From Alphaproteobacteria bacterium (GTDB lineage: Bacteria > Pseudomonadota > Alphaproteobacteria > Rs-D84): a stretch of 63,012 nucleotides of DNA. Below are positions 56 through 63,012 of this stretch, piece after piece. The position numbers and the translations under genes are program-made. The notes under the pieces were generated by a model. That model searched no databases. It saw only the letters and a program-made list of their open reading frames with translations, and was not told the origin of the DNA. Where the stretch lies: the NCBI GenBank assembly GCA_017618175.1, contig JAFZUT010000006.1:1-63012 (forward strand), read 5' to 3'. The stretch's first letter is position 1. Every line of letters starts with the position of its first letter.

Positions 56-147
56 GGTACCTTTTTGTCCACCACTTTTTTTAGAAAATGTGATTCAGTA
101 AAATCAATGACTTACGAAATCTTGCGGGGTGGTCAAAAAAAGGTACC
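56..147. promoter_or_regulatory. Putative invertible promoter segment, type A (locus 1)
   Basis: GGTACC palindromic cores with A/T tracts at 56-61 and 142-147, 86 bp apart. The internal sequence recurs at 6092-6183, 25230-25321 and 41115-41206. IHF-consensus AATCAATGACTTA at 102-114; TGT-TACACT -10-like box at 152-160. Confidence 0.75.
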
Positions 148-3110: not shown

Positions 3111-3152
3111 ACTTTATTATATAATACAAAAATCATATTTTGTCAAACAAAA

Positions 3153-4229: not shown

Positions 4230-5440
4230 TATTTTACAATTACCCGCAGAAAAGTTTTTTTACCACGTTGAACCATTATCTCTGGACGGGGTGCAATGGT
4301 CGTGTGCCAATCCGTAATTTTTTCACCGTTGATTTGAATACCGCCCTGTTCAACCATACGGCGTGCATCAGATTTAGATGCAAACATCCCAATTGCGACC
4401 AAGAAATCAACAATTCCCATCGGCGCGGCCATTTTAATTTCAACGCTTGGCGCATTATCGGCATTTCCGCCACTAAACAACGCCGCCGCCGCGCGCTCTG
4501 CGTTCTCTGCCGCATCGGCACCATGGGCAATTGTTGTTGCCGCGTTTGCCAAAATCCGCTTTGCCTCGTTCAGTTCTGCACCACGCAATTTCGCCAATTT
4601 GTTGATTTCATTGATTGGAATTTCCGTAAATATTTTCAAGAATTTTTCAACCAATTCATCCGGCGTATTGCGGAAATATTGCCAATATTCATACGGTGAC
4701 AATTTGTCTTCATTTACCCAAACGGCATTTCCGGCCGACTTTCCAATTTTATTTCCCGCCGCATCTGTAATTAGCGAAGTGGACAAAACAAACGCTTCCT
4801 TGCCCAATTTTTTGCGGATAAGTTCAATACCCATAACCGCGTTGCCCCATTGATCTGCACCACACAGTTGCAACACACAACCATATTTTTTATACAGTGT
4901 CAAAAAGTCAACCGCCTGGAACGTCATATAGTTAAATTCCAAAAATGTCATACCATTTTCCAACCGGCGTTTCACACTTTCCATAGACAACATACGCGGC
5001 ACGGTGAAATCAGTTCCAAATTCCGCCAAGAAATCAATATGCCCATAATTTTTCATCCAATCGTAATTATCAACAATAATTGCATCCGATTTGCCACGCC
5101 CAAACTTCAAAAATTTTGAATAAGATTTTTTTAACCCCGCAATATTTTTGGACAAAATTTCTTCGGTCATCATTGGCCGGCCCGTATCGCGTCCCGATGG
5201 GTCACCAATGCGCCCGGTTGCACCACCAACCAACATTAATGGCCGATGCCCAAATTTCTGCAACCAACGCATCATCATCACCGGGACAAGATGTCCCACG
5301 TGCAACGAATCCGCCGTTGGATCCGACCCCAAATACGCAGTAATATTTCCGTTATTTAATGCATCGGTCAAACCGTCCATATTTGAACATTGATTGATAA
5401 AACCACGCGCTTCCAATTCATGCAATAAATCATTTTTCAT
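4229..5440 (-). CDS. tyrS: Tyrosine--tRNA ligase
   Basis: DPTADSLHVGH (HIGH), GADQWGN, KIGKS (KMSKS-like) and C-terminal S4 domain. Confidence 0.97.
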   Translation of the reverse strand: MKNDLLHELEARGFINQCSNMDGLTDALNNGNITAYLGSDPTADSLHVGHLVPVMMMRWLQKFGHRPLMLVGGATGRIGDPSGRDTGRPMMTEEILSKNIAGLKKSYSKFLKFGRGKSDAIIVDNYDWMKNYGHIDFLAEFGTDFTVPRMLSMESVKRRLENGMTFLEFNYMTFQAVDFLTLYKKYGCVLQLCGADQWGNAVMGIELIRKKLGKEAFVLSTSLITDAAGNKIGKSAGNAVWVNEDKLSPYEYWQYFRNTPDELVEKFLKIFTEIPINEINKLAKLRGAELNEAKRILANAATTIAHGADAAENAERAAAALFSGGNADNAPSVEIKMAAPMGIVDFLVAIGMFASKSDARRMVEQGGIQINGEKITDWHTTIAPRPEIMVQRGKKTFLRVIVK

Positions 5441-5537
5441 CAAAATCGCCCTTTTTATATTAGTATAATTTTACCAAAATCCGCACGATATTCAATGAAA
5501 AAGTAGCAAAACAAAAATCCGCCCATCAGGGCGGATC

Positions 5538-6041
5538 TTACATCATACAACCCGGTCCGTTAAAACATACCCCATTATTGCCAGAACAACAATAACCACT
5601 CGGACAATCTCGGGCTGAATTGCATGATTGACCAATAACACGTTTTTCAGCCAATTCCCACAAAATACAACTGCTATCAACATGTATCTCACTGTTCCAT
5701 TCTACACAGGTTTTATATGTAACCGTCGTTTCTGGCAGGTTTGTTGCACTTTGTAACAAATCCCGTGTCACCAAGAAATTATCATTACAATCTCCATCAC
5801 CATCCGCATCAGCATCACAAATTCCACGTTCACCCAATACACCCGCTTCATCGGTGTATGTAACAACCGTTTCTCCAACACCGTTTTCCTCGTAATTGAC
5901 CCATGCTTCTGGTATCGTATTTTGTTTCAATGCGTCTTGGGCATCGACATAGTCCCGTGATGTGACGGTGGATGATGTTGCGTATGCATTTAACGCCAAA
6001 ACCGATGCAATTGCACCGATGCTAAGAATTGAAATCCTCAT
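5538..6041 (-). CDS. Secreted Cys-rich protein, family member 2 (MRISIL-type signal peptide)
   Basis: Same conserved N-terminus; body closely similar to 57583-58092. Confidence 0.85.
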   Translation of the reverse strand: MRISILSIGAIASVLALNAYATSSTVTSRDYVDAQDALKQNTIPEAWVNYEENGVGETVVTYTDEAGVLGERGICDADADGDGDCNDNFLVTRDLLQSATNLPETTVTYKTCVEWNSEIHVDSSCILWELAEKRVIGQSCNSARDCPSGYCCSGNNGVCFNGPGCMM

Positions 6042-6091
6042 ATTCCCTTCCTTTGTTATGCTTGTTTGGTATGTTTATATGGTAACAAAAA

Positions 6092-6183
6092 GGTACCTTT
6101 TTGTCCACCATTTTTTTTAGAAAATGTGATTCAGTAAAATCAATGACTTACGAAATCTTGCAGGGTGGTCAAAAAAAGGTACC
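6092..6183. promoter_or_regulatory. Putative invertible promoter segment, type A, flipped relative to its gene (locus 2; predicted ON)
   Basis: GGTACC at 6092-6097 and 6178-6183. On the minus strand it reads TGGACA (6107-6102), 17 bp, TACCAT (6084-6079). Confidence 0.75.
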
Positions 6184-6251
6184 TTTTTGTGACCAGCTAC
6201 CCCACCGCGTCCCGCGGTCCCCCCCTTCACGAAACGTGAAGGGGATTTATA

Positions 6252-6290
6252 AAAAACCGGCGGATTCCCGCCGGTTTTCACTAACCACTA
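6252..6290 (-). repeat. TAGTGGTTAGTGAAAACCGGCGG-N4-CCGCCGGTTTTT hairpin repeat / terminator
   Basis: Reverse-complement copy of the elements at 36055-36093 and 57390-57428. Confidence 0.75.
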
Positions 6291-6307
6291 TCCACTTACA
6301 CTAACCA

Positions 6308-7171
6308 CTAATACAACCCGAACTTGGTTATATAGTTAAATGAAATGCCGATTATAAAATTGCTGCCGTAATGTTCGGCGTCACGCGCCTTGGCACGGCG
6401 ATATTGAACATACGGTCCCATTGTAAAATCACCCCACAGGTTCGTATCCATACGCGCAACTACGCTTAAATCCCGTTCCAAATCTGTGCCAACATATTGG
6501 GAATAGTCCAGATACTCACGATAGTACCCATTTGTTGATAATTTTACCCCATCGCGAACACCGTATTCCAAACGCCAACCGATTTCGGCGGCCAGTTTGC
6601 TGACCTGGTCATGGCCGTATGTGAAATCATATTCATAAACGCCCGCGATATATAATTCTTTGATAATCGGCGAATCAAACACCGAAAAACCGGCCATACC
6701 GCGCAGCACCTTTAACCGGTTGTCCGAATCGTTTGCCGGCACGAATTCCGTTTCATACGCCGCACGCACCATTGGCCCCAATTTGAAAGAATCAAAATCC
6801 CAACACGCATAGTTCAAATTACTGGTCGCCAAGATTTTATCTGCGCTTTCGTTGACCAATGTTTCACCATCATACGGCTTTATCTTTGTCCGACCGTATT
6901 CCATAAACAAAGAATTATCCCAATTGAAACGGTCATGTTTATATTCCAAGGCCGTATCAAAAACACCTTTGATAAATTCTTGATCATCGGCACTTAATGC
7001 AGAAATCGGCGAACCTTGGTATTCCCCCGAATGGCGAACCGTGGTTTTCGACAAATCCAACCCTATTCGGCGAATATTCAAAATCAATTCTTTGCCCGCC
7101 AAATCGACATCGTCTGCATATGCCACGAATGGCAACAACGCCGCACACATAAATACAGAAAATTTTTTCAT
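6308..7171 (-). CDS. Predicted outer-membrane beta-barrel protein (DUF3078/DUF481-like)
   Basis: Signal peptide, amphipathic beta-strands, aromatic C-terminus. Confidence 0.6.
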   Translation of the reverse strand: MKKFSVFMCAALLPFVAYADDVDLAGKELILNIRRIGLDLSKTTVRHSGEYQGSPISALSADDQEFIKGVFDTALEYKHDRFNWDNSLFMEYGRTKIKPYDGETLVNESADKILATSNLNYACWDFDSFKLGPMVRAAYETEFVPANDSDNRLKVLRGMAGFSVFDSPIIKELYIAGVYEYDFTYGHDQVSKLAAEIGWRLEYGVRDGVKLSTNGYYREYLDYSQYVGTDLERDLSVVARMDTNLWGDFTMGPYVQYRRAKARDAEHYGSNFIIGISFNYITKFGLY

Positions 7172-7189
7172 AATCGCCCCCATATTAAA

Positions 7190-7807
7190 TTATTTGGAAA
7201 TATACAAAACACCGTCACGATCTTGGTAATGCCACCCGGCATCACGCAATGCAATGGTCAACGCCCCACGTCGCGCCGCCGGCACCCGAAAAGTCATTTG
7301 ATTTCCATCTATGGTTTTTGTATTCAAATCAATGCCATTATCCGCCGCGATTCTGCGCACGCGCGACCAATCAGTCAATTTATTATTCAACGACACAACA
7401 ACCCACGATTCGTGTCCGGCATCATCACCATCGCCCAACCAATTTTGAACACCGTTCGACACCAACCAATTCCGCGCCGCGTTGCGGTCAACCGTCATTG
7501 TTATATTTGCAGAATATGTCGTATCAGATTGTTTTTCGCCACTTATTCCTGAACTTTCAATAAGTGTTGTTAAAACGGCGGACTTTTCATTTTTAACCGC
7601 GGCACGCAACGCGGTTGAATCCGCATATGGCGATAATGCGTCAACAATAACCTGACGCCGGGCCTCATCCATTGCCATATTTTTTGCCGTTGCGGCGGTA
7701 TCACTGGTCACATTAACATGCGCGGTCGCGGTCAACGGTGCACCAAATGCGCCACCGGCCACCAACATAACCGCACCAAACACCAAGAATCTTATTATCG
7801 TTCCCAT
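7190..7807 (-). CDS. Secreted hypothetical protein
   Basis: Signal peptide; 205-aa ORF co-oriented with its neighbours. Confidence 0.7.
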   Translation of the reverse strand: MGTIIRFLVFGAVMLVAGGAFGAPLTATAHVNVTSDTAATAKNMAMDEARRQVIVDALSPYADSTALRAAVKNEKSAVLTTLIESSGISGEKQSDTTYSANITMTVDRNAARNWLVSNGVQNWLGDGDDAGHESWVVVSLNNKLTDWSRVRRIAADNGIDLNTKTIDGNQMTFRVPAARRGALTIALRDAGWHYQDRDGVLYISK

Positions 7808-7822
7808 ACGTCAACCACCGAT

Positions 7823-9361
7823 TTAGAATTTTGCCTGGACCCCGATACGGATGCCCATAGATTTATAAACCGATTCGATTTCATTGTCAACTTTGCACAC
7901 CCAACCCGGACATTCGTTTTTAATTTTTACAATGTTCTGGGCGGTTGGATCATTTGCCAACATATCGGATTCAGTATATCCTGCATCAATCCACGCCTGC
8001 AACAGTTCATTATAAATGCCGTTATAATACCCACTGTTCAGATAAGTGTTCGCCTCGCCACCCGACATAGTGTAATAATCGAACGTGAATCCAACGGTCA
8101 ATGCAACGGTATCGGTTAATGCCGTCATATAATTTGCACCCAAGCCAATATGCCACGCATCACCAAATCCGCCCTTGTCTTCCACGCTTTTTGGATGTTG
8201 CCAATCAGACCGATACGGTTGATCACCGGTCGCGGTATAAAGCGGCAATCCAAATTCAAGACGTGCATTCACCAAATTATACCTGTCAATTTCATAATCT
8301 AAATCCAATGCCAAATATGGCCCCATCCATGTTGTTTCGTACGAATGGCTAACCCCCGGTAATTTGAACATATATGTTCCACCGGTGTTCACGCCATCGG
8401 CCCCGGCACCAATCACCCAGAAACCATTGGCATCAACCGCCGGATTCCACAAAACTTGTTGAGTGTCATTGTTATAATGTATCAAAACAATCGGGTCACA
8501 TTGAATTTCATCGCCACCCGCAGATGTCCCAGAACAATACCCGGTATCAACGGTTAAACCATAATCTTGTTTTGTTTCCAATTTTGTCCGCAAATAACGG
8601 AACCCAATCGACGGTGTCAAACGCGCAGACCCCAACTTCATAAAATCACTTAACCCAAATCCAATGTTAAATCCCATCATATCGCCACTAGTACTGTTGC
8701 CAATGGAAAGCGAATGACCAATCTGCTGACCAATATATTCATCAACATTCGGGTCATATTGTTGGTTACCGTTCACATCGTCCCACCATTCGGTCACCAG
8801 ATAACCACCATTTGTAATATCGTCATCAATCATTGGTGAATCGCCAAATTGCATACCATAACGGAATCCGGCATCAATCTGCATTTTTGTATTTCCACCA
8901 AAACGATACCCCGCCGTAATATCCAACACGTTCCAACGCAGGTTGTCATAGTGCAACTTACTGCCCGCGTCTTTCATTTCAAAGTTCCAATTTGCAAATT
9001 CGTGCGATAGTCCGCCACCCAGCCAGAATCCATCACCCTTTTGAATATTTGTGCCGTTTGCACCCGATGTTTTGGTTGTTTGCGTCCGTGTTTGCTGTTC
9101 TGTGCCAACCACACGTGTATATCCGTTATATGGTTGCCCGATATACGCATTATCATTTGGCGTAACGGTCCGCGTACGGGTGTATGTGGTATCTTGACTG
9201 TAATTAGTGGTTTTTGCGCGATTGGCATAACCACTGGTCGAATAATTTCTTTGTGGCGAATTATAATTTCCCGTGTAATAGGTCCCCGCCGCGGCCGCAA
9301 TTCCCGGCATCAATGCAAACAAAGAGCAATTCAAAACAAATGAACAAAGTCTTTTTCCCAT
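7823..9361 (-). CDS. Predicted outer-membrane beta-barrel protein (omptin-like pattern)
   Basis: Signal peptide, Thr-rich N-region, beta-strands, terminal IRIGVQAKF with C-terminal Phe. Confidence 0.6.
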   Translation of the reverse strand: MGKRLCSFVLNCSLFALMPGIAAAAGTYYTGNYNSPQRNYSTSGYANRAKTTNYSQDTTYTRTRTVTPNDNAYIGQPYNGYTRVVGTEQQTRTQTTKTSGANGTNIQKGDGFWLGGGLSHEFANWNFEMKDAGSKLHYDNLRWNVLDITAGYRFGGNTKMQIDAGFRYGMQFGDSPMIDDDITNGGYLVTEWWDDVNGNQQYDPNVDEYIGQQIGHSLSIGNSTSGDMMGFNIGFGLSDFMKLGSARLTPSIGFRYLRTKLETKQDYGLTVDTGYCSGTSAGGDEIQCDPIVLIHYNNDTQQVLWNPAVDANGFWVIGAGADGVNTGGTYMFKLPGVSHSYETTWMGPYLALDLDYEIDRYNLVNARLEFGLPLYTATGDQPYRSDWQHPKSVEDKGGFGDAWHIGLGANYMTALTDTVALTVGFTFDYYTMSGGEANTYLNSGYYNGIYNELLQAWIDAGYTESDMLANDPTAQNIVKIKNECPGWVCKVDNEIESVYKSMGIRIGVQAKF

Positions 9362-9459
9362 CTTTCACTCCATACTATTATCAAACCTATTTTATCATAA
9401 AAATATTGAAAAAAAAACAGGATTATGTAAAATGCCATCGGTTTTTTATCAAACCATGT

Positions 9460-9544: not shown

Positions 9545-9616
9545 AGAATTATCACATTTGGCGCATTTTCTGCTTGCCCGAAAAATCAAAATTTTGCTAA
9601 CCTGTATGCGAAAGGG

Positions 9617-25229: not shown

Positions 25230-25406
25230 GGTACCTTTTTTTGACCACCCCGCGAGATTTCGTAAGTCATTGATTTTACTGAATCGTATTTTCTAAAAAA
25301 AGTGGTGGACAAAAAGGTACCTTTTTGTCCACCATTTTTTTCAAAAAATTTTCTCAGTAATTTCAATGGTCCAATTTTTGACCGAGGTGGTGGTCATAAA
25401 GGTACC
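25230..25406. promoter_or_regulatory. Double switch: segments A and B back to back with three GGTACC sites, between divergent family genes (locus 3)
   Basis: GGTACC at 25230, 25316 and 25401; perfect 32-bp palindrome at 25303-25334. Confidence 0.75.
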
Positions 25407-25912: not shown

Positions 25913-25953
25913 TTAAAAACAGCCGCGTTTTCAAATGCTTTTGTTGGTTTTCA

Positions 25954-28299
25954 TTACTTCACGACACTAAAATTCACAACCGTTGTGGTGCCGGTGGTGT
26001 CGGTCGCACGCAGTGTGTGGTCGCCCATTGGAACATTGTATTCCAATGTTTCACCACTTTTGGTTGAACCCAATGTTTTGTCGTCCAAGAACCAGAATAT
26101 TTTATCGTCCGGATTTGTCGCCAAACCCATAAATCCAATTGGTTCAAAATCGTGCGCGGATGTTATAACCACCTTGGTATCGGGTGTTGGAAATACAACA
26201 ATCGGGGCGGTGCCATCATCCGGAATTTCGTTTATATCGCATCCCGGCATAAATGCCGGTGGGGTTTTGCGTTTGATTCCCGCGCGACGAAACATATCCA
26301 AATATTCCGCATCCCAAAATTCATAAATTTCCATATGTGTGGTCTTTGGGGCGGGCGAACACGCGCGCAGGCCCGTTTTGTTATCGATGGCAATTTGACG
26401 GTGAATGCGGTTGCGCGCAATTGGCGATTTGCCCGGAATAAAATAAGACAGTGTTTTTTGTGGGCAAAATTCGCCTGCAATATCGCCACCGATTTCGCAC
26501 ATTTCTATTTCGATTATATTCATATCGTCACGCAAAAATTTATTGTTCTGAATCGGTTTACCAACCCCGTTGTAGTATTCATTGGTTGCGTTTACCAATG
26601 CAAAATATATTGGTGCGGCGGCGCGCGCGCCACTGAACGCGTTGTTGGGTGTGCCGTCAAAATTACCCACCCAAACAATTAAAACAAAATCTCCAAATAT
26701 GCCCGCCGTCCACGCATCGCGATATGACGAAGATGTACCGGTTTTCCAATAGTGTTGAATCGTTTGACGCCCGGTTTTTGTAAACGGAACTTTCTTTGTC
26801 GGTACCGATTGATGCGACAACATATCAAGTGTAAGGAAAAATGCCTCGGGCGATAAAATGTGGTTAATAACTTCGTCCGGCGCATCGATTTGTGTGCGCA
26901 TCCGCCGATTGGTGCCAAGGTTCGCCATTGTTGCATAAATATGCGCCAATTCAAACATTGAAACTTCGGCCCCGCCCAGTGCGATTGATATTCCATAATG
27001 TTCGGGTGATTTAAGTCGCGCAACCCCCGCATCATTTAATAATTTATGGAAATTTTTGACACCGATTTCGCGCACCAAATTTATTGCCGGAATATTTCGC
27101 GAATGGGTCAATGCATCACGCGCCAGGACCGGACCGTAAAATTCGCTGTCCGAATTTTCGGGTGCATAAACACCAAAGTTTACACGCGCATCGCGCAACA
27201 AACTCATTTCGTGTATCAAACCCATATCCACCGCAGATGCATAAATCAACGGTTTTAATGTTGAACCCGGGCTGCGCCGTGCGCGCACGCCATCATTTTC
27301 ACCGTATATGTCGCGGTTAAAGTAATCCGCCGAACCGATATATGCCAATGTTTCCATCGTTTTATAATTTATTAAAATTGCCGCCGCGTTCGTGACACCG
27401 ATATTACGGCGTGCGTTTATTTCCGCGCTTAACGCGCGTTCTAATTTCTGTTGCAATTTCAAATCGATGGTCGTTTGAATTATTGATTTGTTGGTTTTCG
27501 TTTTGTTCATAAAATCTGTAAAGTGTGGCGCAAGAAACGGCAGGTCCGATACATTTTTCACCGCCAACGGCATCGCCGCGAAAGTTCGCAATTCTGTGTC
27601 GTTCGGGTATTCGGCAATCCATCGTTCAACCAAATTCGCGCGCATATTTTCGATGTTTTTAATTCCGCGTTCGGTGTTTAATCCGCGCTTGGTCGGGTTT
27701 TGTGGAACGGTCGCCAAAGTGATTGATTCTATTTTGGTTATGTCGCATGCGGGTCGACCAAAGTATATTGTGGATGCGGCCGCCACGCCTTCGATGTTTC
27801 CACCGTACGGGGCCAGGTTCAAATACGCTTCGATGATTTCATCTTTGGAATGAAACATGTCGATATAAATTGCCGCCGCAATCTGCATCATTTTCCCGCC
27901 GAATGTTTTACTGTTCAAATCGTATTTTATGCGTGCCAATTGCATAGTGATTGTTGATGCGCCAACGGGGTGTGGGATACCTGAAATATACTGGCGCGCC
28001 GCGCGCAGCATTGATATTGGGTTGATACCGGGATGACGGTAAAAATGTTTGTCTTCGTAAAGTACGACCGCATTGACTATATGCGGACTGATTTCATTTA
28101 GTGGTGTGTATATGCGATATTTGTCATCTGCAGACAATGTCAATCGCAACAGATTGCCGTTCCGGTCGTAATATGCATGCGAAAAAGACACGTTTGATAA
28201 AAGTGGTGCGGTAAAAAATATCCGTATAACCAACCAAGTGACGAAAATCGCGCCGAAAATAATTCCAATTTTTTTAGAAAATCTTTTAATCTTTGGCAT
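25954..28299 (-). CDS. pbpC: Penicillin-binding protein 1C
   Basis: EDKHFYRHPG, GASTITMQ, STLK, SRN and KTG motifs; directly follows the alpha-2-macroglobulin gene. Confidence 0.93.
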   Translation of the reverse strand: MPKIKRFSKKIGIIFGAIFVTWLVIRIFFTAPLLSNVSFSHAYYDRNGNLLRLTLSADDKYRIYTPLNEISPHIVNAVVLYEDKHFYRHPGINPISMLRAARQYISGIPHPVGASTITMQLARIKYDLNSKTFGGKMMQIAAAIYIDMFHSKDEIIEAYLNLAPYGGNIEGVAAASTIYFGRPACDITKIESITLATVPQNPTKRGLNTERGIKNIENMRANLVERWIAEYPNDTELRTFAAMPLAVKNVSDLPFLAPHFTDFMNKTKTNKSIIQTTIDLKLQQKLERALSAEINARRNIGVTNAAAILINYKTMETLAYIGSADYFNRDIYGENDGVRARRSPGSTLKPLIYASAVDMGLIHEMSLLRDARVNFGVYAPENSDSEFYGPVLARDALTHSRNIPAINLVREIGVKNFHKLLNDAGVARLKSPEHYGISIALGGAEVSMFELAHIYATMANLGTNRRMRTQIDAPDEVINHILSPEAFFLTLDMLSHQSVPTKKVPFTKTGRQTIQHYWKTGTSSSYRDAWTAGIFGDFVLIVWVGNFDGTPNNAFSGARAAAPIYFALVNATNEYYNGVGKPIQNNKFLRDDMNIIEIEMCEIGGDIAGEFCPQKTLSYFIPGKSPIARNRIHRQIAIDNKTGLRACSPAPKTTHMEIYEFWDAEYLDMFRRAGIKRKTPPAFMPGCDINEIPDDGTAPIVVFPTPDTKVVITSAHDFEPIGFMGLATNPDDKIFWFLDDKTLGSTKSGETLEYNVPMGDHTLRATDTTGTTTVVNFSVVK

Positions 28300-31200
28300 T
28301 TGAAACAGTGAACTTTTCGGTGTCCGTTGTTGCGCGAATTTCCGAATTATACATATCCATTGCCGCGACCGGTGGAACCGTGAATTCACCCGCCACAGAT
28401 AATTGAACGCGATATGTAAATGTTGTCGGGGTGCGCGAAAGCGGTGCATATATCAACACGCGATCTTCGCGAATTTCGTTGTGGGTCATATCGCCGGACG
28501 CAGAATCTGATATTGGAATAAATCCACCCGGTAATAAATCAGTTATGACCGCATTTCCAATATGATTTGTGCCACCGCGTGTACGTGCCGTGATTTTCAC
28601 ATCCAAAATGTCGCCGATTTCTGCGGAGTGAACCTTTTCACCGTCTGCATTATAATAATCGCGTGAAATATCAATGCCGTTTGATTCGGAACGTGCGATC
28701 CGTGGAAATCCCATAGTGACGATTGTATAAAATGCGGTGTTCTTGGATTTGCATATTTCACAATTTATACGTAATTTATCGGTGCCACGTGGAATATCAA
28801 CGATTACGGTTCCGGCATTTGATACCCGGTCCAGTTTTTTGTCGCCGGCCAAAACCGATATTTTGTCGCCGTCTAATGCGTCTGGGCCGGGGGCGTTCGC
28901 GGTCCCCATAAATATTGCCGCCGCAGTGAATGAATCATAATCACCACGGTTTATATAGTTTTGAATGTTCCGGGTCGCACGTTCGGGAACCATATCAAAG
29001 TAATTGCGCGCAATAAATGTGTACATTGCATCGGCCGCAACCGCGCCACCAAATTGCCCATCATAAACATCATCACCCGATTTATATTTTGATATTAAAT
29101 TGAATGCTTTGTCCGTTTGTTTTAACATTTTATAAGACGCCGCAATGTATGCACCGATAACAGTGTCCGACCAATTCTTGAAGTTTTCGGACATATATTC
29201 TTCCAATGAATCAATATAACTTGTTGTGACATAGTCATTCAAACTTAACGTATATATTGTGAACGCCTTGGCGTGGGCATCCGCCATCGATGTGGTTCGC
29301 ATTCCCGCATATGAACGCAGAAAATCAATGCCACGTGCGAACATAGATTGTGGAACATTGAACCCGCCGCGCCGTGCGATGGTCAAAAAGTTCATCGTGT
29401 ACGCGGTTAAATATGCCGTTGTTGGGTCGGTTTCATTATTTGGGGATGTGCCGGTGTCCGTCCACATTCCAAAAGAACCGTCGCCGTTTTGACGATTTGC
29501 CAAGGTTTGAATCGCCTTGTTAACTATGGCGGTGGAATCGGCACGGTTTGTTCCCAACAATTTATCTTCGGGTGATATCGCGTATGGCAATGCGCGCGAA
29601 ACCAATTGTTCAGTGCAATCAAATTCATAATGCGCAAGATACATAAACATTGGTCGCGACAAAATCGATAAAGACTTTGATATGTACAGTATGTTTGAAT
29701 ATTCCGCATCATACATATTGTTGTCGGTTATTCTTAGGTTGGTTTTTCCGGAATCCAAAACACCGGTTTTTATGTCTGTGCGGAACAGTGTCGCGGGTCG
29801 AACAGACATTTCGTGCGTTGTGCGGCGTGCCGCAATTGGATGATTTTTATCGTCAAACAATGTTGATGATACATCCAATGTGCCCGTCCCGGGTGTGTCC
29901 GCCGCGGTCACATTAAATGTCCATAATTTTTCCGTGTTTTCCGGCAAATTTAACAAACCCGAAGACTTTTCAATTGGCATCAATTTGCCACCTGCGATTA
30001 CATCATTTCGTGCCGTTGCGGCATTACCGGATTCCCCAGCAAGGTTTGATATTACCGTGTTCACGGTGAATTTATCGTTTGGCGCAACAACCAATGGCGC
30101 AGACACAGATATAATTACCGGCGATTGCACGCGGACATCTGTGTCGGCGGACCCGACACGCCCGGGTGCGGCGGCAACGGCATAAACACTTACACCCCCA
30201 TTGAAATATTCGGGAATATCAAAGGTTATTGTTTTGGGTGTGTTTGCGGTTGTATTGATTATTCCGGAGTAAAATGCAACTGGTGGCAAAGTTTTGCGCC
30301 CAAATGGATTGGTAAGTGGCGTGTCAATTCCACCAAATTCGCCTTCAAAATCGCTGCCCCCGATTTTTGCAACTTCGCGCAGGACGTTATATTCAGGCAA
30401 CAACAGTGACAATATTTGGTATGTTTCAACCTGAAGTGCGGCCTTTTGGAAAAAGTGCCGTAATGGGTTTGGAATAGAATAATTTGCAACCTGTAAAATC
30501 CCGGTGTTGACGGCAAACAGCATTACGCGCGCATCGGTGTCGGTTGTAATTTCTATTGGCAATTTGTTGTCGCGAACGGTTTTTGGCGTTTCTAATTTTA
30601 CGTTGATTTTATGCTTGTCGATACTGGTCGAAAACGGCGCAACCGCGTAAGTGTACGGTGTCGTGAAAATATCGCGACTGTTGATATCACGGACAAATGA
30701 AACATTTACATAACCGGTGCCTTCAAAATCCGTGGGCAAAGTGATTTTCTGGGTCGATGCGGTTGTGTCGGCACTGAACCATTTGTGGGCGTACACCCGG
30801 TCGCGTTCAATGGTGATAAGACCCGTTCCGGCATAGGGCGCAATGACGCCAATATTTATTGTGTCACCCGGTTTATATGCAGACGCGTCCAATTTGATTT
30901 GCAATTCTGCGCGTGAATCTTCGCGCAGTTCTGTATTTTCATTTGACGCAACGAAATATTCTATGTTTGCCAAAATATTTTCATTTGAATCCAATAATTG
31001 AACGTAATAGGTTCCACCGTTCAATGTGTTCAATTTTATTTCTGAACCGCTTTTCGACACAGAAACCTGGGATTGCGCAATAATCACATCATGTGATGTT
31101 GTTTGGTATTTATAATGATTATCATAGTCTTTTAATAAACTGGTCAGGTTTTCACGTTTTATCAATTTCATAGTGATATCATCCGCGTCAACTGCGTCAC

Positions 31201-34009
31201 CGGATGCATCCAATACAATCAGTTTGATTGTTGATGCGGAATTGCGGGGAATGTAATTCAGGTCTGATTCAGATTTATAACCAATCAATTTGTTCAGGTT
31301 TGATACACGTGAATTCAAAATTGTCTGGATGCTTTTGCCATCGCCGGCTTCAAATCCATTTATGGCCAAATTCAATATGTATGTGCCAATTGGAATTTCG
31401 CGGTCAAATTTTACATCAACCGTGGCATTGCCGTTTTCATCCGTACGAACGTCCATTGGGTCAACGGTAAACGTTTGAACCGCACGTGCCGCACCACCGG
31501 ACATTCCCGTTTTGGAATTAAAGTTTGATGTGAATTTATAATCGCGATAATCATCAAATGTGAAATCAACGGGGCGCAATATCGCGTGCGCAGAAATACG
31601 GCGGTCGGTCGCGGGTGTCCCGTACAAATTATTCAGTGACACATTTGCCGTCAAATTGTCCGGTGAAACCCATCCGGATTCAGATGAATTATTAATTGCG
31701 GCGATAATTTTCATTGTGTCGGGAACAAATTCTTGGACATTAAAATTACCGGTACCGATTGTGTCTTGGATATGTCCGCGGCCGTTCAGGGTATAAATTG
31801 CGACTTCGTAACGCCCCAATGGTGCATCGGTTGTCAATTTATGCGTGATATCAATCATACCGTCACCCGTCAAAGATACCTTTTTATCCAAAATCGTGCG
31901 GCCACGTGGATCGGTAATTTCCAATTTGACCGGAATATCGGCCATTGGTGAAAAAGTTTTGTTTTCAATAATTGCGCCGATTGTCAATGTTTCGCCCGGA
32001 CGGTAAATACCACGGTCTGAAAATATGAACGATTTTAATGGTGTGTCCATCATTGCATATGTGCCACCTACATCAAATTTGGAATATTCGGCGGATTCGG
32101 CCATGTCGGCATAGTACGGAATAAAAGAAACATCGGCATCGCGTCGGGCAACAATCGCAACGGGTTCTTTTTCATTTCGGTATTCATCACTTGAAAATCT
32201 TGGGATTTCGGCACGCCCATCGGCATCGGTGACCCCCGCCCATATTGGATAACCGTTGCGCCCCAATACCGTTACATCAATTTCCGCCGCGGGTTTCCCA
32301 TTTGACAGGTTTGATACAAACACAACAGACGACCCATCAAGGTTTATCTTGCGAATAATGCCAAGGTTGGTCAGCAATATTAAACGCGCATCGCCATATT
32401 CGGCGGCATTTTTTGTCGCACCGGTTTTGATAATGAATATGCCGGTTTTATCGGTATATGTTCTGTCCAGGTACTCGCCAAGGTTTAATGCAGCATAATT
32501 TACGCGATTTTTTGCCGTGTCAGAAAACGGAATTTTCTTTTGAAATACGCTGGACATATCATAGGCATCGAAAATCCATGGTGCGCGAAATTCCAAATCA
32601 GAAAACAAGTTGTACGTTTGCGTAATAAGGTGGTTGATTGCGTTTGATTCAATCTTGTATAAATTTATATATGCCGCATCAACACCGCCACGTGCGACAA
32701 TTGCCAATTTTTTATCGCCCGCCAAAGACAACAATGCCCCGCCACCCATAATTTTGACACTGCATTCTGGATATGCCACAGGAATTACGCGGTTGATGCC
32801 ATTTTGGGTCGTAAATCCGTTTGCCGAATGTATATCGGGTTTGATTGTCACATACAAATACCTTGGCACCGTGTCGGAAACATCATAAGAAAACGCGTAT
32901 TGATATGTTCCCGCCGGATTCACAAAATGTGCACGTGTTAATTTTATTTTTTGGGATTTATTTATAACATCCGCCGTAATTTCATCGTTTGCCCAGGCGT
33001 GGGATTCATCGGTATTTTCATCGCTAACGGTATTGCGCGGCAAAAGGTACGCATCAATATATTTATCCCAATTTGTGCTTTCCGCCGCGGCCGCGGTCAT
33101 ATCTATTAAAATCAATTGTTGCGGGGTGCCGTATTTATCATCTGCGGTAATTGTCGATAAATTTGATATTTTGAAAAAATTGTCCGCAGAATCAATTATC
33201 GTATGTGCAGTGATTTTTTTGGTACGTGACAGACCGTCCGCATCATATATCCGGTTCAGTTTGAATCGCAGTGTGCGCGATTTATCGGTTATTTCAATTG
33301 GGTCGGTGCGAATAATTGCGGTGCGCATATATCGGTCTATTTTGACCTCAAAGTTTAATCGTTGCCCGCCAAGTCGCATTGAAACCTTGTCCGCAAAGTC
33401 ACGGGTTTGTATTGGATAATCAAAAGATATTACCGCAACACCAATAACCGCGCGATCACCACCCGGGGCCGGGTATATGTTAAAAAGATCGATTTTTGCG
33501 GTAATGGGCGCCGTTTTGAAAGATATGTGTCGTGTGTTGGGACGCACATCACGCGGGAATAATTTTTCACCAATCTTTACATTGAATTTTGTTTCGGCCG
33601 GCCAATCGGCATCGGGCGTGAACGCAATTTCGTACGGATTCACAAAAGACCATTTCCCGCGAATGGCGGGTGAAATCTTGATGTTTTGTGCCAATTCAGA
33701 TCGTGACATATTCGTGTTGAACGCGGGGGCGCCCGGTCCAGATACATAATCATATGAAATACGCAATGAATCCGCCGGTGCAATGTCGCGATTGTTATTC
33801 GTGTCCGGTGTATCATTTAATAAAACCGTTGACTTATCGTCTGTAAAGTGTGCCGCAATTGGTGCATTGACCGAAACATCCACCCGGGTAATTTGTGCAT
33901 TGTGTGATGAAATCCAATAGAAACCAAGGCCAAAGAAGACCGCGGCGGCGACAATAATCCCCAAAATTCGTATTATGCGGGACGTCCAAATGCCTGTTTT
34001 CTGCAACAT
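28286..34009 (-). CDS. Bacterial alpha-2-macroglobulin (YfhM-like)
   Basis: 1907 aa; SDRGIYRPGE motif, thioester CTEQ, QNGDGSFGMW and EIREDRV motifs. Confidence 0.92.
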   Translation of the reverse strand: MLQKTGIWTSRIIRILGIIVAAAVFFGLGFYWISSHNAQITRVDVSVNAPIAAHFTDDKSTVLLNDTPDTNNNRDIAPADSLRISYDYVSGPGAPAFNTNMSRSELAQNIKISPAIRGKWSFVNPYEIAFTPDADWPAETKFNVKIGEKLFPRDVRPNTRHISFKTAPITAKIDLFNIYPAPGGDRAVIGVAVISFDYPIQTRDFADKVSMRLGGQRLNFEVKIDRYMRTAIIRTDPIEITDKSRTLRFKLNRIYDADGLSRTKKITAHTIIDSADNFFKISNLSTITADDKYGTPQQLILIDMTAAAAESTNWDKYIDAYLLPRNTVSDENTDESHAWANDEITADVINKSQKIKLTRAHFVNPAGTYQYAFSYDVSDTVPRYLYVTIKPDIHSANGFTTQNGINRVIPVAYPECSVKIMGGGALLSLAGDKKLAIVARGGVDAAYINLYKIESNAINHLITQTYNLFSDLEFRAPWIFDAYDMSSVFQKKIPFSDTAKNRVNYAALNLGEYLDRTYTDKTGIFIIKTGATKNAAEYGDARLILLTNLGIIRKINLDGSSVVFVSNLSNGKPAAEIDVTVLGRNGYPIWAGVTDADGRAEIPRFSSDEYRNEKEPVAIVARRDADVSFIPYYADMAESAEYSKFDVGGTYAMMDTPLKSFIFSDRGIYRPGETLTIGAIIENKTFSPMADIPVKLEITDPRGRTILDKKVSLTGDGMIDITHKLTTDAPLGRYEVAIYTLNGRGHIQDTIGTGNFNVQEFVPDTMKIIAAINNSSESGWVSPDNLTANVSLNNLYGTPATDRRISAHAILRPVDFTFDDYRDYKFTSNFNSKTGMSGGAARAVQTFTVDPMDVRTDENGNATVDVKFDREIPIGTYILNLAINGFEAGDGKSIQTILNSRVSNLNKLIGYKSESDLNYIPRNSASTIKLIVLDASGDAVDADDITMKLIKRENLTSLLKDYDNHYKYQTTSHDVIIAQSQVSVSKSGSEIKLNTLNGGTYYVQLLDSNENILANIEYFVASNENTELREDSRAELQIKLDASAYKPGDTINIGVIAPYAGTGLITIERDRVYAHKWFSADTTASTQKITLPTDFEGTGYVNVSFVRDINSRDIFTTPYTYAVAPFSTSIDKHKINVKLETPKTVRDNKLPIEITTDTDARVMLFAVNTGILQVANYSIPNPLRHFFQKAALQVETYQILSLLLPEYNVLREVAKIGGSDFEGEFGGIDTPLTNPFGRKTLPPVAFYSGIINTTANTPKTITFDIPEYFNGGVSVYAVAAAPGRVGSADTDVRVQSPVIISVSAPLVVAPNDKFTVNTVISNLAGESGNAATARNDVIAGGKLMPIEKSSGLLNLPENTEKLWTFNVTAADTPGTGTLDVSSTLFDDKNHPIAARRTTHEMSVRPATLFRTDIKTGVLDSGKTNLRITDNNMYDAEYSNILYISKSLSILSRPMFMYLAHYEFDCTEQLVSRALPYAISPEDKLLGTNRADSTAIVNKAIQTLANRQNGDGSFGMWTDTGTSPNNETDPTTAYLTAYTMNFLTIARRGGFNVPQSMFARGIDFLRSYAGMRTTSMADAHAKAFTIYTLSLNDYVTTSYIDSLEEYMSENFKNWSDTVIGAYIAASYKMLKQTDKAFNLISKYKSGDDVYDGQFGGAVAADAMYTFIARNYFDMVPERATRNIQNYINRGDYDSFTAAAIFMGTANAPGPDALDGDKISVLAGDKKLDRVSNAGTVIVDIPRGTDKLRINCEICKSKNTAFYTIVTMGFPRIARSESNGIDISRDYYNADGEKVHSAEIGDILDVKITARTRGGTNHIGNAVITDLLPGGFIPISDSASGDMTHNEIREDRVLIYAPLSRTPTTFTYRVQLSVAGEFTVPPVAAMDMYNSEIRATTDTEKFTVSNAKD

Positions 34010-34257
34010 AGATAAATTCTCCGTTCCTGATGCTTTTTTTATATTAGAGTATAAATATTAAAACACAAGTTTTTTGTTTGGAAAAATGTCGTAACAAAAT
34101 GTTAAAAATCACTTGCTTTTTTTAATTTTTTGTCATATTATGCGGGCACGTGCCGAATGGTGCGAAGAACACAACCATCGTGGGAATTTCTGTCCGGGCG
34201 ACCGGTTTTATGCATCCCCAGATGGCGAGGATAACAACAGAAATAAAAGGATTTACT

Positions 34258-35115
34258 ATGGCATTGCCAACTTTTACTATGCAACAATTGATGGAGGCCG
34301 GCGTTCATTTTGGACACCACACCCGTCGTTGGAACCCGTTGATGACACCCTATGTTTATGGCGTCAAAGATAAAATTCATATTATCAATTTGAACAAAAC
34401 TGCACCGCTGCTGCATCGTGCATTGGTTGCGTTGGAGGCGATTGCCGCCGCCGGTGGCAAGGTTTTGTTTGTCGCAACCAAGCACCAGGCCAAAGATATC
34501 GTCAAAGATGCGGCCGAACGTTGTGGTCAATTCTATGTGAACAATCGTTGGTTGGGTGGTATGTTGACCAATTGGACAACCGTTTCACAATCTATTCGCC
34601 GTCTGAAAAAGATGGAGGCGGATATTGAAAATGCCAATAAATTGGGTCTGACCAAGAAAGAAGTCGGTGTTATGACCAAAGAAGTTGCGAAATTGCGCGA
34701 TATTTTCGGCGGTATTTTGGATATGCACGGTGTGCCCCAGGTTATGATTGTTATTGATGTTCCGCGTGAAATGAACGCGGTACGCGAAGCGAAAAACCTG
34801 GACATTCCAACAATTGCAATTTGTGATACGAATGCGAATCCGGAAATGGTTGATTATCCGGTTCCGGGTAATGATGACGCGGCGCGTGCAACACAACTGT
34901 ATTGCGATTTGTTCGTAGATGCGATTTTGTCCGGTATTGAAAAACGCCTGGGCGGCGCGGCCGGCAAGAAAGTCGAATCGAATATGATTGATGAACACGA
35001 TGCATTGGAAGAAGAAATGAAAGATAAAGAAGCCAAACAAAAATCCAAGGCTTCGGCGTCACGTGCCGAACGTCGTGAAAAATTGGCGGACAAGACAGAA
35101 AAAGCCGATAAATAA
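34258..35115 (+). CDS. rpsB: 30S ribosomal protein S2
   Basis: EAGVHFGH, RWLGGMLTN and PGNDDA motifs. Confidence 0.97.
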   Translation: MALPTFTMQQLMEAGVHFGHHTRRWNPLMTPYVYGVKDKIHIINLNKTAPLLHRALVALEAIAAAGGKVLFVATKHQAKDIVKDAAERCGQFYVNNRWLGGMLTNWTTVSQSIRRLKKMEADIENANKLGLTKKEVGVMTKEVAKLRDIFGGILDMHGVPQVMIVIDVPREMNAVREAKNLDIPTIAICDTNANPEMVDYPVPGNDDAARATQLYCDLFVDAILSGIEKRLGGAAGKKVESNMIDEHDALEEEMKDKEAKQKSKASASRAERREKLADKTEKADK

Positions 35116-35180
35116 TCTGTAATATAAATATGTGGGCGCGGTGGCGCGTCCACACAACAAATTTAGCAAAGGGGGAAATT

Positions 35181-36050
35181 ATGGCAGAAGTCACAGCGAA
35201 ATTGATTCAAGAACTGCGCGAAAAAACATCCGCAGGTATGATGGATTGCAAAAAGGCATTGATTGAAAATAATGGTGATATCCAGGCGGCGGCCGATTGG
35301 TTGCGCCAAAAAGGTATTGTCAAGGCGGCGTCCAAGGCCGGCCGCGTGGCGGCATCGGGTTTGGTGACCGTCGTAAAATGCGATAATATGGGTTGTGTCG
35401 TTGAATTGAACGCCGAAACAGACTTTGTTGCGAAAAACGACAAATTCCAAAAATTGGTTGCCGATGTTGCGAACAAGGCTTTGGAATTGTCCGGTGATTT
35501 TGACGCAACACTGGCCGCGGTCAAAGACGATATTGCATCCACAATCGCGACAATTGGTGAAAATATGAATCTGCGCCGTATTGCAAAAGTTTCAGGCCAA
35601 CATATTTTCAGTTATATTCACAATGCATTGGTTCCGGGCATGGGGCAAATTGGTGTTGCGGTCGCAATTGATGGTGATTCGGATAAAATTGCCGAAATCG
35701 GTCCAAAAATCGCGATGCACATTGCGGCGAACAAACCGGAATTTATGACCATTGCCGATGTTGATCCGGCGGCGGTTGAACGCGAGAAAAAAGTGTTCAT
35801 CGAATCTGGGGCAACGGCGGGCAAACCGGAAAACATCGTTGAAAAAATGGTGAACGGTCGTTTGCAGAAATACTATGCGGAATCGGTTTTGGAAGAACAA
35901 CCATTCGTTATGGACCCGTCCAAGACCGTTAAACAGGTTTTGAACGAAGCCGGCGGTAAATTGGCAGGATTTGCTTACTTTGTGTTGGGTGAAGGCATTG
36001 AAAAACGCAATGATAACCTGGCGGATGAAGTTGCAAATATGTTAAAGTAA
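35181..36050 (+). CDS. tsf: Elongation factor Ts
   Basis: AGMMDCKKAL and ETDFVA motifs; follows rpsB. Confidence 0.97.
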   Translation: MAEVTAKLIQELREKTSAGMMDCKKALIENNGDIQAAADWLRQKGIVKAASKAGRVAASGLVTVVKCDNMGCVVELNAETDFVAKNDKFQKLVADVANKALELSGDFDATLAAVKDDIASTIATIGENMNLRRIAKVSGQHIFSYIHNALVPGMGQIGVAVAIDGDSDKIAEIGPKIAMHIAANKPEFMTIADVDPAAVEREKKVFIESGATAGKPENIVEKMVNGRLQKYYAESVLEEQPFVMDPSKTVKQVLNEAGGKLAGFAYFVLGEGIEKRNDNLADEVANMLK

Positions 36051-40120: not shown

Positions 40121-41062
40121 TTAATTCTTGTTCCACAACCAACAATTTGCATCGGTGTGAGTTGCATCATATGTTGTTGTACCATCCGGCCACCCGGCAC
40201 AGGTCATTTTCGCCTGGGCATATGTGGTGACACCGGCCATTGTTGGTATTTTCGCGGAATCATTTGTCGCATTGTACGCCGCCGCACCGGTATATGTCGC
40301 AACCGAACCACCAACCACACCATTTGAATTATATGTGACAACATTACCCGCCGTCCCGGTCGGCAGTGTCACCTGGTTATTACTAATCGCCGCCATAACC
40401 GCACCCATTGTGGGAATGGAAATTTTTTGAATTGCCTTTTGATTGGCCGTTAAATTTGATGCTTGGTAATTTGGTACATCACTTTCCTCGATTATCTTAC
40501 GTTCACCAACAACATTGTCCATACCCGTTCGAGTAGCGATACCTGTTCCTTTGACACGAATATTCAAATAGTCAAACGTGCTCCCCCCGGATCCTTCCGT
40601 ATAAGCATTTGTAACTCCAGAACCATTAATTTCTCCATAACCAGATTTTGGAATCCTATTTTGCAAATAATTATTCATATTGTCCCAAATTAATCGTGTT
40701 TCGTTTGCCACGGCACGAACCGTCGGTATCATTTTATCTGTGATTGTGGTACTCAATACTTCTACGCTATCGCTAAAACCCCACAACCCATCACCGTCAC
40801 TTACGATACCAGCAATTTCATTGTTCACAATACCGTATTCATCCCCAACCAATCCATTTGTTGTGTCGTATGAAACAACGGTGGGGATTTCAAAATCATC
40901 TCCATAGGCACTAAATTCCATAGTGTCCGCATTGATTAAATCTTGTTTCAATGCATCTTGGGCATCAACGTAACCCCGTGAAGTCACGGTTGATGATGTT
41001 GCGTATGCATTGATTGATAAAACGGATGCAATTGCACCGATGCTAAGAATTGAAATCCTCAT
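40121..41062 (-). CDS. Secreted protein, family member 5 (long form, MRISIL type)
   Basis: Likely start at 41062; conserved N-terminus; ends in TCAGW..CWLW. Confidence 0.85.
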   Translation of the reverse strand: MRISILSIGAIASVLSINAYATSSTVTSRGYVDAQDALKQDLINADTMEFSAYGDDFEIPTVVSYDTTNGLVGDEYGIVNNEIAGIVSDGDGLWGFSDSVEVLSTTITDKMIPTVRAVANETRLIWDNMNNYLQNRIPKSGYGEINGSGVTNAYTEGSGGSTFDYLNIRVKGTGIATRTGMDNVVGERKIIEESDVPNYQASNLTANQKAIQKISIPTMGAVMAAISNNQVTLPTGTAGNVVTYNSNGVVGGSVATYTGAAAYNATNDSAKIPTMAGVTTYAQAKMTCAGWPDGTTTYDATHTDANCWLWNKN

Positions 41063-41114: not shown

Positions 41115-41206
41115 GGTACCTTTTTTTGACCACCCTGCAAGATTTTGTAAGTCATTGATTTTACTGAATCGCACTTTCTAAAAAAAGTGATGGACAAAAA
41201 GGTACC
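41115..41206. promoter_or_regulatory. Putative invertible promoter segment, type A (locus 4; predicted OFF)
   Basis: GGTACC at 41115 and 41201. The interior is the reverse complement of 6098-6177 while the gene-proximal leader is nearly identical. Confidence 0.75.
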
Positions 41207-57450: not shown

Positions 57451-57541
57451 GGTACCTTTTTGTCCACCATTTTTTTCAAAAAAATTTTTCAGTAATTTCA
57501 ATGGTCCAATTTTTGACCGAAGTGGTGGTCATAAAGGTACC
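57451..57541. promoter_or_regulatory. Putative invertible promoter segment, type B (locus 5)
   Basis: GGTACC at 57451 and 57536; interior nearly identical to 25322-25400; flanks match locus 1. Confidence 0.75.
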
Positions 57542-62462: not shown

Positions 62463-62491
62463 AAAAATACCCGCATCTGCGGGTATTTTTT
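62463..62491. terminator. Bidirectional intrinsic terminator
   Basis: AAAAATACCCGCA-TC-TGCGGGTATTTTT. Confidence 0.75.
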
Positions 62492-63008
62492 AGCACTCAC
62501 CTATACCGCAAATGCCATTGTTACATACTTCGCTGTGGCATCCGTTATTTGGATCGTACCCTGGACAATCAGCATCCACCGTGCAACGTACCGTACCATA
62601 CCACGGTTCATCACAATTATATGATGGTTCACCAACCCCCATCAATAAACAGTTATTATTGGAATCATATTCCGTACAATATATATTTGGCATCGAATTA
62701 TACACACATTCTGTTGCACGATATGCAACATCCGCCGTCACCAATTTATCCGCATCGGTACTTGAATCATAACCATTTGTTCCATCAAAAATTCCACGTT
62801 CACCGATTGTGCCGGCGGTGGATGTATATGTTACAACGGTGTCGCCGGGTGTTGATGCATTCGTTCCGGTCGCCGGTATTTTATTTTGTTTCAATGCATC
62901 TTGGGCATCAACATAATCTTTGGATGTAACCGTGGATGAAGTTGCCAGAACTGAATTGATTGTAATAACCGATGCAATTGCACCGAATGCAAGAATTGAA
63001 ATTCTCAT
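62490..63008 (-). CDS. Secreted Cys-rich protein, family member 7 (MRISIL type)
   Basis: Conserved N-terminus; body similar to 24683-25189; upstream region lies beyond the window end. Confidence 0.85.
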   Translation of the reverse strand: MRISILAFGAIASVITINSVLATSSTVTSKDYVDAQDALKQNKIPATGTNASTPGDTVVTYTSTAGTIGERGIFDGTNGYDSSTDADKLVTADVAYRATECVYNSMPNIYCTEYDSNNNCLLMGVGEPSYNCDEPWYGTVRCTVDADCPGYDPNNGCHSEVCNNGICGIGEC

Positions 63009-63012
63009 ATTC

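Follow-up and report, generated by a model that had tools for sequence, protein, structure and literature searches.

A gene for a small secreted protein and a second gene about 35 kb away carry the same leader on the same strand of one contig, and beyond that leader the two carry the same short segment in opposite orientations. The question that this locus raises is how one segment can come to stand both ways round behind one leader, and whether its orientation decides if the gene is expressed. The window, i.e. the whole stretch of DNA that was analysed (63,012 nt), is an entire contig (C26) from an 891,628-bp genome, which was assembled from short-read metagenomic data into 29 contigs and is estimated to be 95.9% complete. 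The sequencing runs that contain window sequence are animal gut metagenomes (19 runs from 10 studies, all of DNA or unknown type, with no RNA), and the relatives of this bacterium within Candidatus Enterousia are of gut origin, from ruminants, horses, and people. To our knowledge, the lineage has been met only in metagenomes and is thought to depend on partners. The answer that we consider probable is that loci 2 and 4 represent two states of one type of miniature invertible promoter element, which stands before approximately 28 paralogous genes.

One Segment in Two Orientations

The original prediction held that the genes of loci 2 and 4 both lie on the minus strand behind a near-identical leader. 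Both reading frames are present as claimed (Table 1), and the leader is in fact the same in 59 of 59 nt (100%; 6044-6102 and 41067-41125), with a 48-mer that recurs without mismatch at 6050-6097, at 41073-41120, and, on the other strand, at 25401-25448. The interior that follows at locus 2 had been described as the reverse complement of that of locus 4 with a few substitutions, and the alignment agrees with this, as 75 of 80 positions match when 6098-6177 is compared with 41121-41200 in reverse complement and only 50 of 80, with gaps, on the same strand. The interior of locus 2 is not self-complementary (50 of 80 against its own reverse complement), and a repeat search reports the two regions as 112 nt of 94% complementarity (6084-6195 against 41103-41214).

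At both loci, the interior lies between two GGTACC cores that are 86 bp apart, and the cores sit inside the palindrome AAAAAGGTACCTTTTT, which is where the breakpoints had been placed. Past the second core both loci resume, as had also been stated, with a T-tract and then GACCAG (TTTTTGTGACCAG at locus 2 and TTTTTTTTGACCAG, 41207-41219, at locus 4). In loci 2 and 4 alike, GTCCACC is the end that carries the T5 run and GACCACC the end that carries the T7 run, and because these runs keep to their own ends, the exchange points map within the common 16-bp AAAAAGGTACCTTTTT. The recurrence of the motif is not due to chance, since AAAAGGTACCTTTT (with at most one mismatch) occurs 11 times in the window, compared with 0.01 times expected from shuffled sequences. 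The best reading of the locus 2 segment is that it is a real, site-specific inversion, as originally proposed, and this reading is supported by the orientation counts, by a flipped locus in the related genome G161, and by an Mpi-like recombinase gene beside a cassette; mixed states in one sample have not been shown. The starts of contigs C5 and C13, which carry a distal flank of the locus-2 type, were considered as a second version of locus 2 and were ruled out as paralogues (83% and 81% identity).

Table 1. Coordinates of the cassette loci of the window and of their parts
Feature	Position	Strand	Description
Locus 1 cassette	56..147	.	Type A, default; before gene 189-710 (+)
Locus 2 family gene	5538..6041	-	167 aa; signal peptide, TVTSRDYVD..ALKQ motif, Cys-rich tail
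Locus 2 leader, fixed promoter half	6042..6091	-	RBS, candidate -10 TACCAT 6084-6079 after TG, half-site GTAACAAAAA; leader identical at loci 2, 4, and 3b
Gene-proximal crossover core GGTACC	6092..6097	.	Centre of palindrome AAAAAGGTACCTTTTT, 6087-6102
Type A interior, flipped	6098..6177	-	L end GGTGGACAAAAA (minus strand) toward gene; centre TTCAGTAAAATCAATGACTTAC
Locus 2 candidate -35 TGGACA	6107-6102	-	In L end
Gene-distal crossover core GGTACC	6178..6183	.	86 bp from proximal core
Distal flank half-site TTTTTGTGACCAG	6184..6196	.	Like the flank type at other loci
Locus 3 double cassette	25230..25406	.	Type A 25230-25321 and type B 25316-25406, middle core in common, both default; between divergent family genes 24683-25189 (-) and 25457-25912 (+)
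Locus 4 family gene	40121..41062	-	313 aa
Locus 4 cassette with both cores	41115..41206	.	Default; R end GGTGGTCAAAAAAA toward gene; cores 41115-41120 and 41201-41206
Locus 5 cassette	57451..57541	.	Type B, 85 bp, default; before gene 57583-58092 (+)
Further family gene	62490..63011	-	Truncated by contig end; upstream switch region outside the window

The window thus holds five cassette loci and a sixth family gene that is cut off at the contig end. A repeated hairpin (AAAACCGGCGG...CCGCCGGTTTT) is found at 6241-6296, 36055-36096, 41219-41260, and 57384-57431, with further copies in the genome, and often adjoins CACTAACCAC-like words past the distal flanks. Rfam recognizes two tRNAs in the window and nothing else.

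Cassettes across the Genome

When counted genome-wide with the pattern AAA[GC]GTAC[CG]TTT, the cores number 58 and the cassettes 29, spread over 17 of the 29 contigs, with a spacing of 86 bp in 24 cassettes, of 85 bp in 5, and no other. The anatomy of the sites, as observed, is that of a palindrome, perfect over 16-20 bp, in which an A-tract, GGTACC, and a T-tract follow each other and the centre is TA. The two ends of a cassette are unlike, the L end being GGTGGAC followed by five A and the R end GGTGGTC followed by seven A, and the centre distinguishes two types, namely type A (TTCAGTAAAATCAATGACTTAC) and type B (TTCAGTAATTTCAATGG). A family gene or its leader follows directly in 28 of the 29 cassettes, and the one exception (C17:13852-13937) is the upstream member of a tandem pair of cassettes.

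The fixed gene-side flank GGTACC-T5-GTTAC allows the cassettes to be oriented and defines 28 gene-proximal sites, behind 24 of which an ORF can be read, the other 4 running off contig ends. At 27 of these sites, it is the R end (GGTGGTCA) that is directed toward the gene, and the L end is found there only at locus 2. It has to be noted that the cassette copies behind this 27:1 count are not independent of each other. An exact-pattern count of type A in the genome gave 21 default copies and 1 flipped copy.

Three double cassettes with a common middle core are present (locus 3 of the window, C2:51542-51718, and C17:13852-14028), two of them between divergent family genes and one as a tandem pair; with three successive cores, alternatives of the shufflon kind would become possible.

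The centre of the cassette is highly conserved both within and among three genomes, i.e. this genome and the related G150 and G161, and it contains AATCAATGACTTA, which we take to fit the consensus for IHF. Three genes of the HU/IHF family are present in the genome, all of them scoring below the NCBIfam cut-offs. Searches further afield gave no matches in the metagenome contig collection, either to the whole type A cassette or to the locus-2 distal flank joined to either cassette end; the exact default and flipped patterns were found in none of 200 other genomes of the genus, and the 21-mer site in none of 30 relatives.

The cassette loci are repeats, and assemblies of such genomes consequently break there; in this genome, 14 of the 58 contig ends lie at most 700 bp from a core. 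Contig C21 (11,410 bp) carries at its two ends (38-129 and 11282-11373) inverted, near-identical copies of cassette and leader. The cassette loci break the assembly and may also bound larger invertible segments. The read-level data consist only of Logan contigs from four runs (for window positions 5800-25700), in which the pieces end at repeats, and no listed piece bridges any cassette in that interval, which leaves a mixed orientation within a sample undecided by such contigs. One loose end from these data (run X3) stops at 6102 with TTGACCACC, a default-type junction, which is uninformative on locus 2 because the leader is common to the paralogues.

The Flipped Locus of a Related Genome

In G150, the genome of which is in four contigs and the recombinase of which is 79% identical, 19 cassettes of the 85/86-bp design can be read and none of them is flipped, which implies that switching, if there is any, is rare or strongly biased. 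The closer relative G161 (recombinase 93% identical) has 13 loci, of which 11 are default, one is flipped, and one is without a cassette. The flipped locus is the positional counterpart of C3:7349-7440, which is default in this genome, and synteny is observed on both sides. Its interior matches that of C3:7349-7440 in 79 of 80 positions as the reverse complement and in 52 of 80 on the same strand, and the distal flanks of the two loci share approximately 97% identity for more than 200 nt. The gene behind the flipped G161 cassette encodes a protein with 55% amino acid identity to the locus-2 protein and is nearer to copies with a default cassette in this genome; since it and the locus-2 gene are not orthologues, the two flips look independent, and not like one inherited event. 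Both orientations of the target regions have in this way been found twice, at locus 2 compared with 27 other sites and in G161 compared with this genome.

At the G161 locus without a cassette (L146, G161:C7:31681-32292), the leader and core of a family gene run straight into a flank of the distal type, TTTTTTATGACCACC. Such a joint would result from a deletion between two cores, an event that the symmetric TA centre should permit. The blocks of the window are reordered on contig C9 of G161, where 709-5511 is followed by the reverse complement of 36049..25953, by 6315-24636, and then by 36089 onward; in the window, the breakpoints coincide with loci 2 and 3 and with a terminator-like repeat near 36.05 kb, and the joints in G161:C9 are without cassettes. 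This reordering could stem from recombination between cassette loci or from an assembly join at repeats.

The Recombinase

The genome encodes four tyrosine recombinases and three proteins with a resolvase domain, two of which are large (open frames of 542 and 550 aa). The third is the sole small serine recombinase, a protein of 199 aa encoded on the minus strand at C9:153-752. It matches the PF00239 (Resolvase) model with 113.4 bits and HTH_23/HTH_7 weakly, and it aligns with 195 of the 203 positions of NCBIfam NF009949, the "master DNA invertase Mpi family", with 270.4 bits (E 9.1e-81), which is 1.6 bits short of the curated cut-off of 272. A relative with 71% identity bears the NCBI name Mpi family, the catalytic-serine motif GYIRVSS (GYxRVS) aligns with that of Gin, and Gin is also the best match among solved structures (4m6f, E 7e-8). 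Of the genomes sampled, 110 of 151 in the order and 92 of 107 in the genus have a homologue. With one recombinase, 58 common cores, and 29 dispersed cassettes, the genome meets the one-enzyme-many-targets criterion of Mpi systems. While the match to this family, just short of the cut-off, is observed, it is an inference that the Mpi-like invertase is the enzyme that flips the cassettes, for which there are no activity data, and its action on them in trans is likewise inferred and has not been shown.

The start of the recombinase gene is directly preceded by a type B cassette, which is degenerate, and by a family gene, and the same is the case in G150. The distal core site of this cassette reads AAACGTACGT. 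This cassette (C9:796-881) has GGAC-type ends on both sides (GTCCACC ... GGGGGGACAAAAA) and CGTACG as its distal core; since xGGACA would be found at the -35 position in either orientation, the family gene there may be constantly on.

In other Enterousia species, segments of 116-134 bp flanked by repeats lie beside the recombinase genes, with cores that read ACG[AT][AT]CG or GGAACG/CGTTCC, as found by a search script that is noisy. Four of these recombinase loci (L064, L086, L101, and L128) have inverted repeats with other cores, e.g. TAAACGAACGTTTG / CAAACGTTCGTTTA, 116-134 nt apart. The 86-bp GGTACC design seems to be confined to the small clade of this genome (G000), G150, and G161. A recombinase with 67% identity (L116) is encoded on a bin contig labelled Bacteroides fragilis, with AAACGAACG...AAACGTTCGTTT repeats upstream, which either reflects the mis-binning of an Enterousia contig or hints at an exchange across the two lineages.

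The Gene Family behind the Cassettes

All 24 readable ORFs begin with a signal-peptide-like start, which is followed by T[VI]TS[RK]DYVD..ALKQ. From the N terminus onward, the family members consist of a signal peptide of the AxA signal peptidase I type, this conserved motif, a middle part that varies, a C..W...NCLLWN loop that is conserved, and, in many cases, a tail rich in cysteine. A 188-nt inverted repeat with 91% identity is formed by genes 2 and 3b. Scans of six of the proteins gave no credible Pfam, no PHROG, and no Atlas match, with only sub-cut-off Pfam rows for two of the six, and the 107 relatives of the family are all unnamed or "hypothetical protein" entries from alphaproteobacterial MAGs. 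By sequence comparison, the proteins are an orphan family. An AlphaFold2 model calculated from 50 sequences is of low confidence (mean pLDDT 62.5, pTM 0.25).

A Proposed Promoter Split by the Recombination Site

On the gene strand of locus 2, a promoter scan calls TGGACA, a spacer of 17 nt, and TACCAT with TG before this -10 (Table 1), and the recombination core falls within the spacer of the promoter-like site; the scan of locus 4 found nothing across the proximal core. When all cassettes are flipped in silico such that the L end is proximal, TGGACA (5/6) comes to stand 17-18 nt before TG-n-TAC[AC][CA]T at 28 of 28 loci. The same result is obtained for all 15 loci scored in G150 and all 10 scored in G161, a filter having left out 4 of 19 and 3 of 13 loci, respectively. 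With the R end proximal, most type A copies present GTCAAA (3/6) and five present GTCACA at 18 nt (4/6). The default ends of type B present TGGTCA (4/6) at 17-18 nt and, because they keep a 4/6 hexamer, these cassettes may not be simple on/off switches.

The flip places TGGACA 17 nt upstream of the TG-extended TACCAT/TACACT, and on that ground locus 2 is read as ON; probably, then, locus 2 is ON and the default type A copies are OFF, an assignment that is inferred from sequence without transcript data. The promoter call as such is weak evidence, as the region of locus 2 has one promoter-like site and 0.6 are expected in shuffles, and flipping raises the -35 match merely from 3/6 to 5/6. Since the recombinase half-site includes TGGACA, the conservation of this hexamer need not mean that it is used as a promoter. 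If default means OFF, the G150 consensus would have no type A gene on. A promoter internal to the cassette, TTGACC-16-TAAGTC, was also considered and rejected; it lacks the final T, is not called by the scan, and would read in the same direction as the hybrid promoter. It resembles what we take to be the alphaproteobacterial promoter consensus.

In the model that we propose for the approximately 28 small secreted-protein paralogues, each of which is preceded by an 85/86-bp cassette between two palindromic recombination sites, the single Mpi-family small serine invertase (C9:153-752) would cut the core centres and flip the cassette. The -10 (TG-n-TACCAT or TACACT) would stay in the fixed leader, with the recombination site in the promoter spacer. 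With the L end beside the gene, TGGACA would lie 17 nt upstream of the -10 and the gene would be ON, as is presumed for locus 2; with the R end beside the gene, GTCAAA would occupy the same position and the gene would be OFF, as is presumed for locus 4 and the other type A copies. For two sites on one molecule to synapse, 86 bp is a very short distance, which counts against the inversion model. By conjecture, sites 86 bp apart could meet with the help of a DNA-bending protein, so far only inferred, that may bind at the conserved cassette centre. On this model, a family of surface or secreted proteins would undergo phase or antigenic variation, and for the most part a single member would be on.

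A more far-reaching version of this model is possible, and we put it forward as tentative, being more inclined to doubt than to accept all of its parts together. It describes an ultra-compact split-promoter inverton, in which the flip would swap only the -35 hexamer and change the A-run by 2 nt, and in which a bend at the centre would permit synapsis over 86 bp. The approximately 28 switches would be served by one Mpi-type invertase, probably shared horizontally with gut Bacteroidales, and would result in the expression of the orphan surface proteins mostly one at a time. The symmetric TA centre would in addition allow deletions and large inversions between loci, which would explain the G161 site without a cassette and the breaks in synteny. 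If this version holds true, antigenic or phase variation would be a core trait of genome-reduced, uncultured gut alphaproteobacteria of the order Rs-D84.

Alternative Explanations

The two orientations could also be a fossil arrangement, left by an old inversion system in which the flips of locus 2 and of G161 were rare events that became fixed and no switching takes place at present. Each assembly indeed has one orientation per locus, 0 of the 19 G150 cassettes are flipped, and the Logan contigs give no sign of heterogeneity within a sample, although they stop at repeats and are inconclusive in this respect. Against it stand an intact recombinase frame that is conserved in 92 of the 107 genus genomes sampled, the retention of cores, half-sites, and the exact 85/86-bp spacing in 29 of 29 cassettes, and flips at different genes in two genomes. 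We consider this explanation unlikely, with the reservation that ongoing switching is itself inferred. Less likely still is an exchange between loci, in which recombination at cores or leaders, accompanied by large chromosomal inversions, would have joined the locus-2 gene to a foreign cassette end. Such exchanges would suit the altered block order of the window with respect to G161, in which loci 2 and 3 mark breakpoints, as well as the 188-nt inverted repeat of genes 2 and 3b and the inverted cassette copies at both ends of contig C21. Locus 2 has, however, an ordinary leader and an ordinary distal flank; it is inferred that recombination between leaders preserves the default orientation, and that one local event suffices where the between-locus exchanges that were worked through need two or leave orphan cassettes.

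The flipped state might also be an artefact of assembly, caused by the palindromes or by the repetition of leader and cassette. The genome is a short-read metagenome assembly, 14 of 58 contig ends lie at most 700 bp from a core, and leader plus cassette form a repeat of approximately 160-200 bp. The palindrome of 16-20 bp is nonetheless presumably shorter than the word length of the assembler (which is not known), from which we infer that the junction words must occur in the reads; locus-specific differences are found at most approximately 90 nt from the junction, and a flipped junction of the same kind exists in the independent record of G161, so that we regard an artefact as very improbable. 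Least credible of all is the insertion, either way round, of an 86-bp mobile element of the MITE kind with terminal inverted repeats. Such an element would be short, with inverted ends and many copies, as the cassettes are, and yet the cassettes keep a constant distance to the start of the family gene, their orientation is 27:1 and not approximately even (with the caveat that the copies are not independent), the positional orthologue in G161 differs solely by the flip with unchanged junction positions, and an Mpi-like invertase is linked to the cassettes. Scattered insertion with an orientation independent of the gene, which would define elements of this type, is not met, as 28 of 29 cassettes lie directly before a family gene or leader. 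Site-specific inversion of a miniature promoter element remains the preferred reading.

Comparison with Known Systems

The DNA invertases Hin, Gin, Cin, and Pin act at a single locus on a segment of 1-4 kb, with the help of Fis and an enhancer, at sites in which A-tract half-sites surround a 2-bp crossover centre that is asymmetric. The recombinase described here has the catalytic family in common with them, Gin being its best structure match, but its NCBIfam assignment is Mpi and not Hin, and the segment is 86 bp long, is present at many loci, and has a symmetric TA centre. A system of the Hin/Gin type, which would require a segment of kilobase size with an internal enhancer and an asymmetric crossover dinucleotide, was therefore rejected. 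In the fimS switch of E. coli (FimB/FimE), as in the present case, a segment is flipped before a surface-structure gene. That segment has 314 bp, is found at a single locus, contains the complete promoter, and is inverted by tyrosine recombinases with a requirement for bending by IHF, a role like the one conjectured above for the cassette centre; here, a candidate serine recombinase, 86 bp, many loci, and an apparently split promoter are found instead.

For Mycoplasma penetrans, Horino in 2003 reportedly described an invertible segment of 135 bp with 12-bp repeats. The mpl (P35) family of this species comprises 38 dispersed surface-protein genes, each turned on or off on its own by an invertible promoter next to it (PMC2268961). 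The likeness lies in a genome-reduced, host-associated bacterium with one invertible promoter for each paralogue, and the candidate recombinases there are tyrosine (Xer-like) enzymes (PMC2268961), unlike the candidate serine recombinase here. The mpl proteins are lipoproteins, and the family described here has an AxA signal of the signal peptidase I type.

The Mpi regions of Bacteroides are approximately 170-230 bp long. The site AAACGTACGT beside the recombinase gene presumably fits the Mpi repeat consensus, which we have assumed and not confirmed, and the main sites, AAAGGTACCT, would differ from that assumed consensus at two positions. In Bacteroides fragilis, Mpi inverts 13 regions, of which 7 are polysaccharide promoters (PMC4747536), so that one serine recombinase serves many dispersed promoter regions that are flanked by inverted repeats and control surface molecules (PMC4747536); the present system, as inferred, would resemble it in this. 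The present system differs in its alphaproteobacterial host with a 0.89-Mb genome, in cassettes of 85/86 bp with GGTACC as the main core, in targets that are single genes for small secreted proteins where those of B. fragilis Mpi are polysaccharide operons, in a promoter that is seemingly split by the recombination site, and in the presence of approximately 28 switches in 0.89 Mb. No description was found in the literature on Enterousia, on inversion in Rs-D84, or on alphaproteobacterial invertible promoters with serine recombinases (supplementary files were not covered), and the text of the Enterousia genome paper has no mention of inversion, recombinase, or phase variation.

If the cassettes are active, they would be among the smallest invertible promoter elements known and their set among the densest (approximately 31 switches per Mb), global promoter inversion of the Mpi type would not be confined to Bacteroidales, and strong selection on the cell surface, by immunity, phages, or partner cells, would be implied. 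The cassette would also represent a minimal natural substrate for the synapsis, by a serine invertase, of sites 86 bp apart. Our verdict is that the system is most likely a compact variant of the Mpi-type invertible promoters, in which the kind of system is known and the apparently split design with 86 bp and GGTACC is new.
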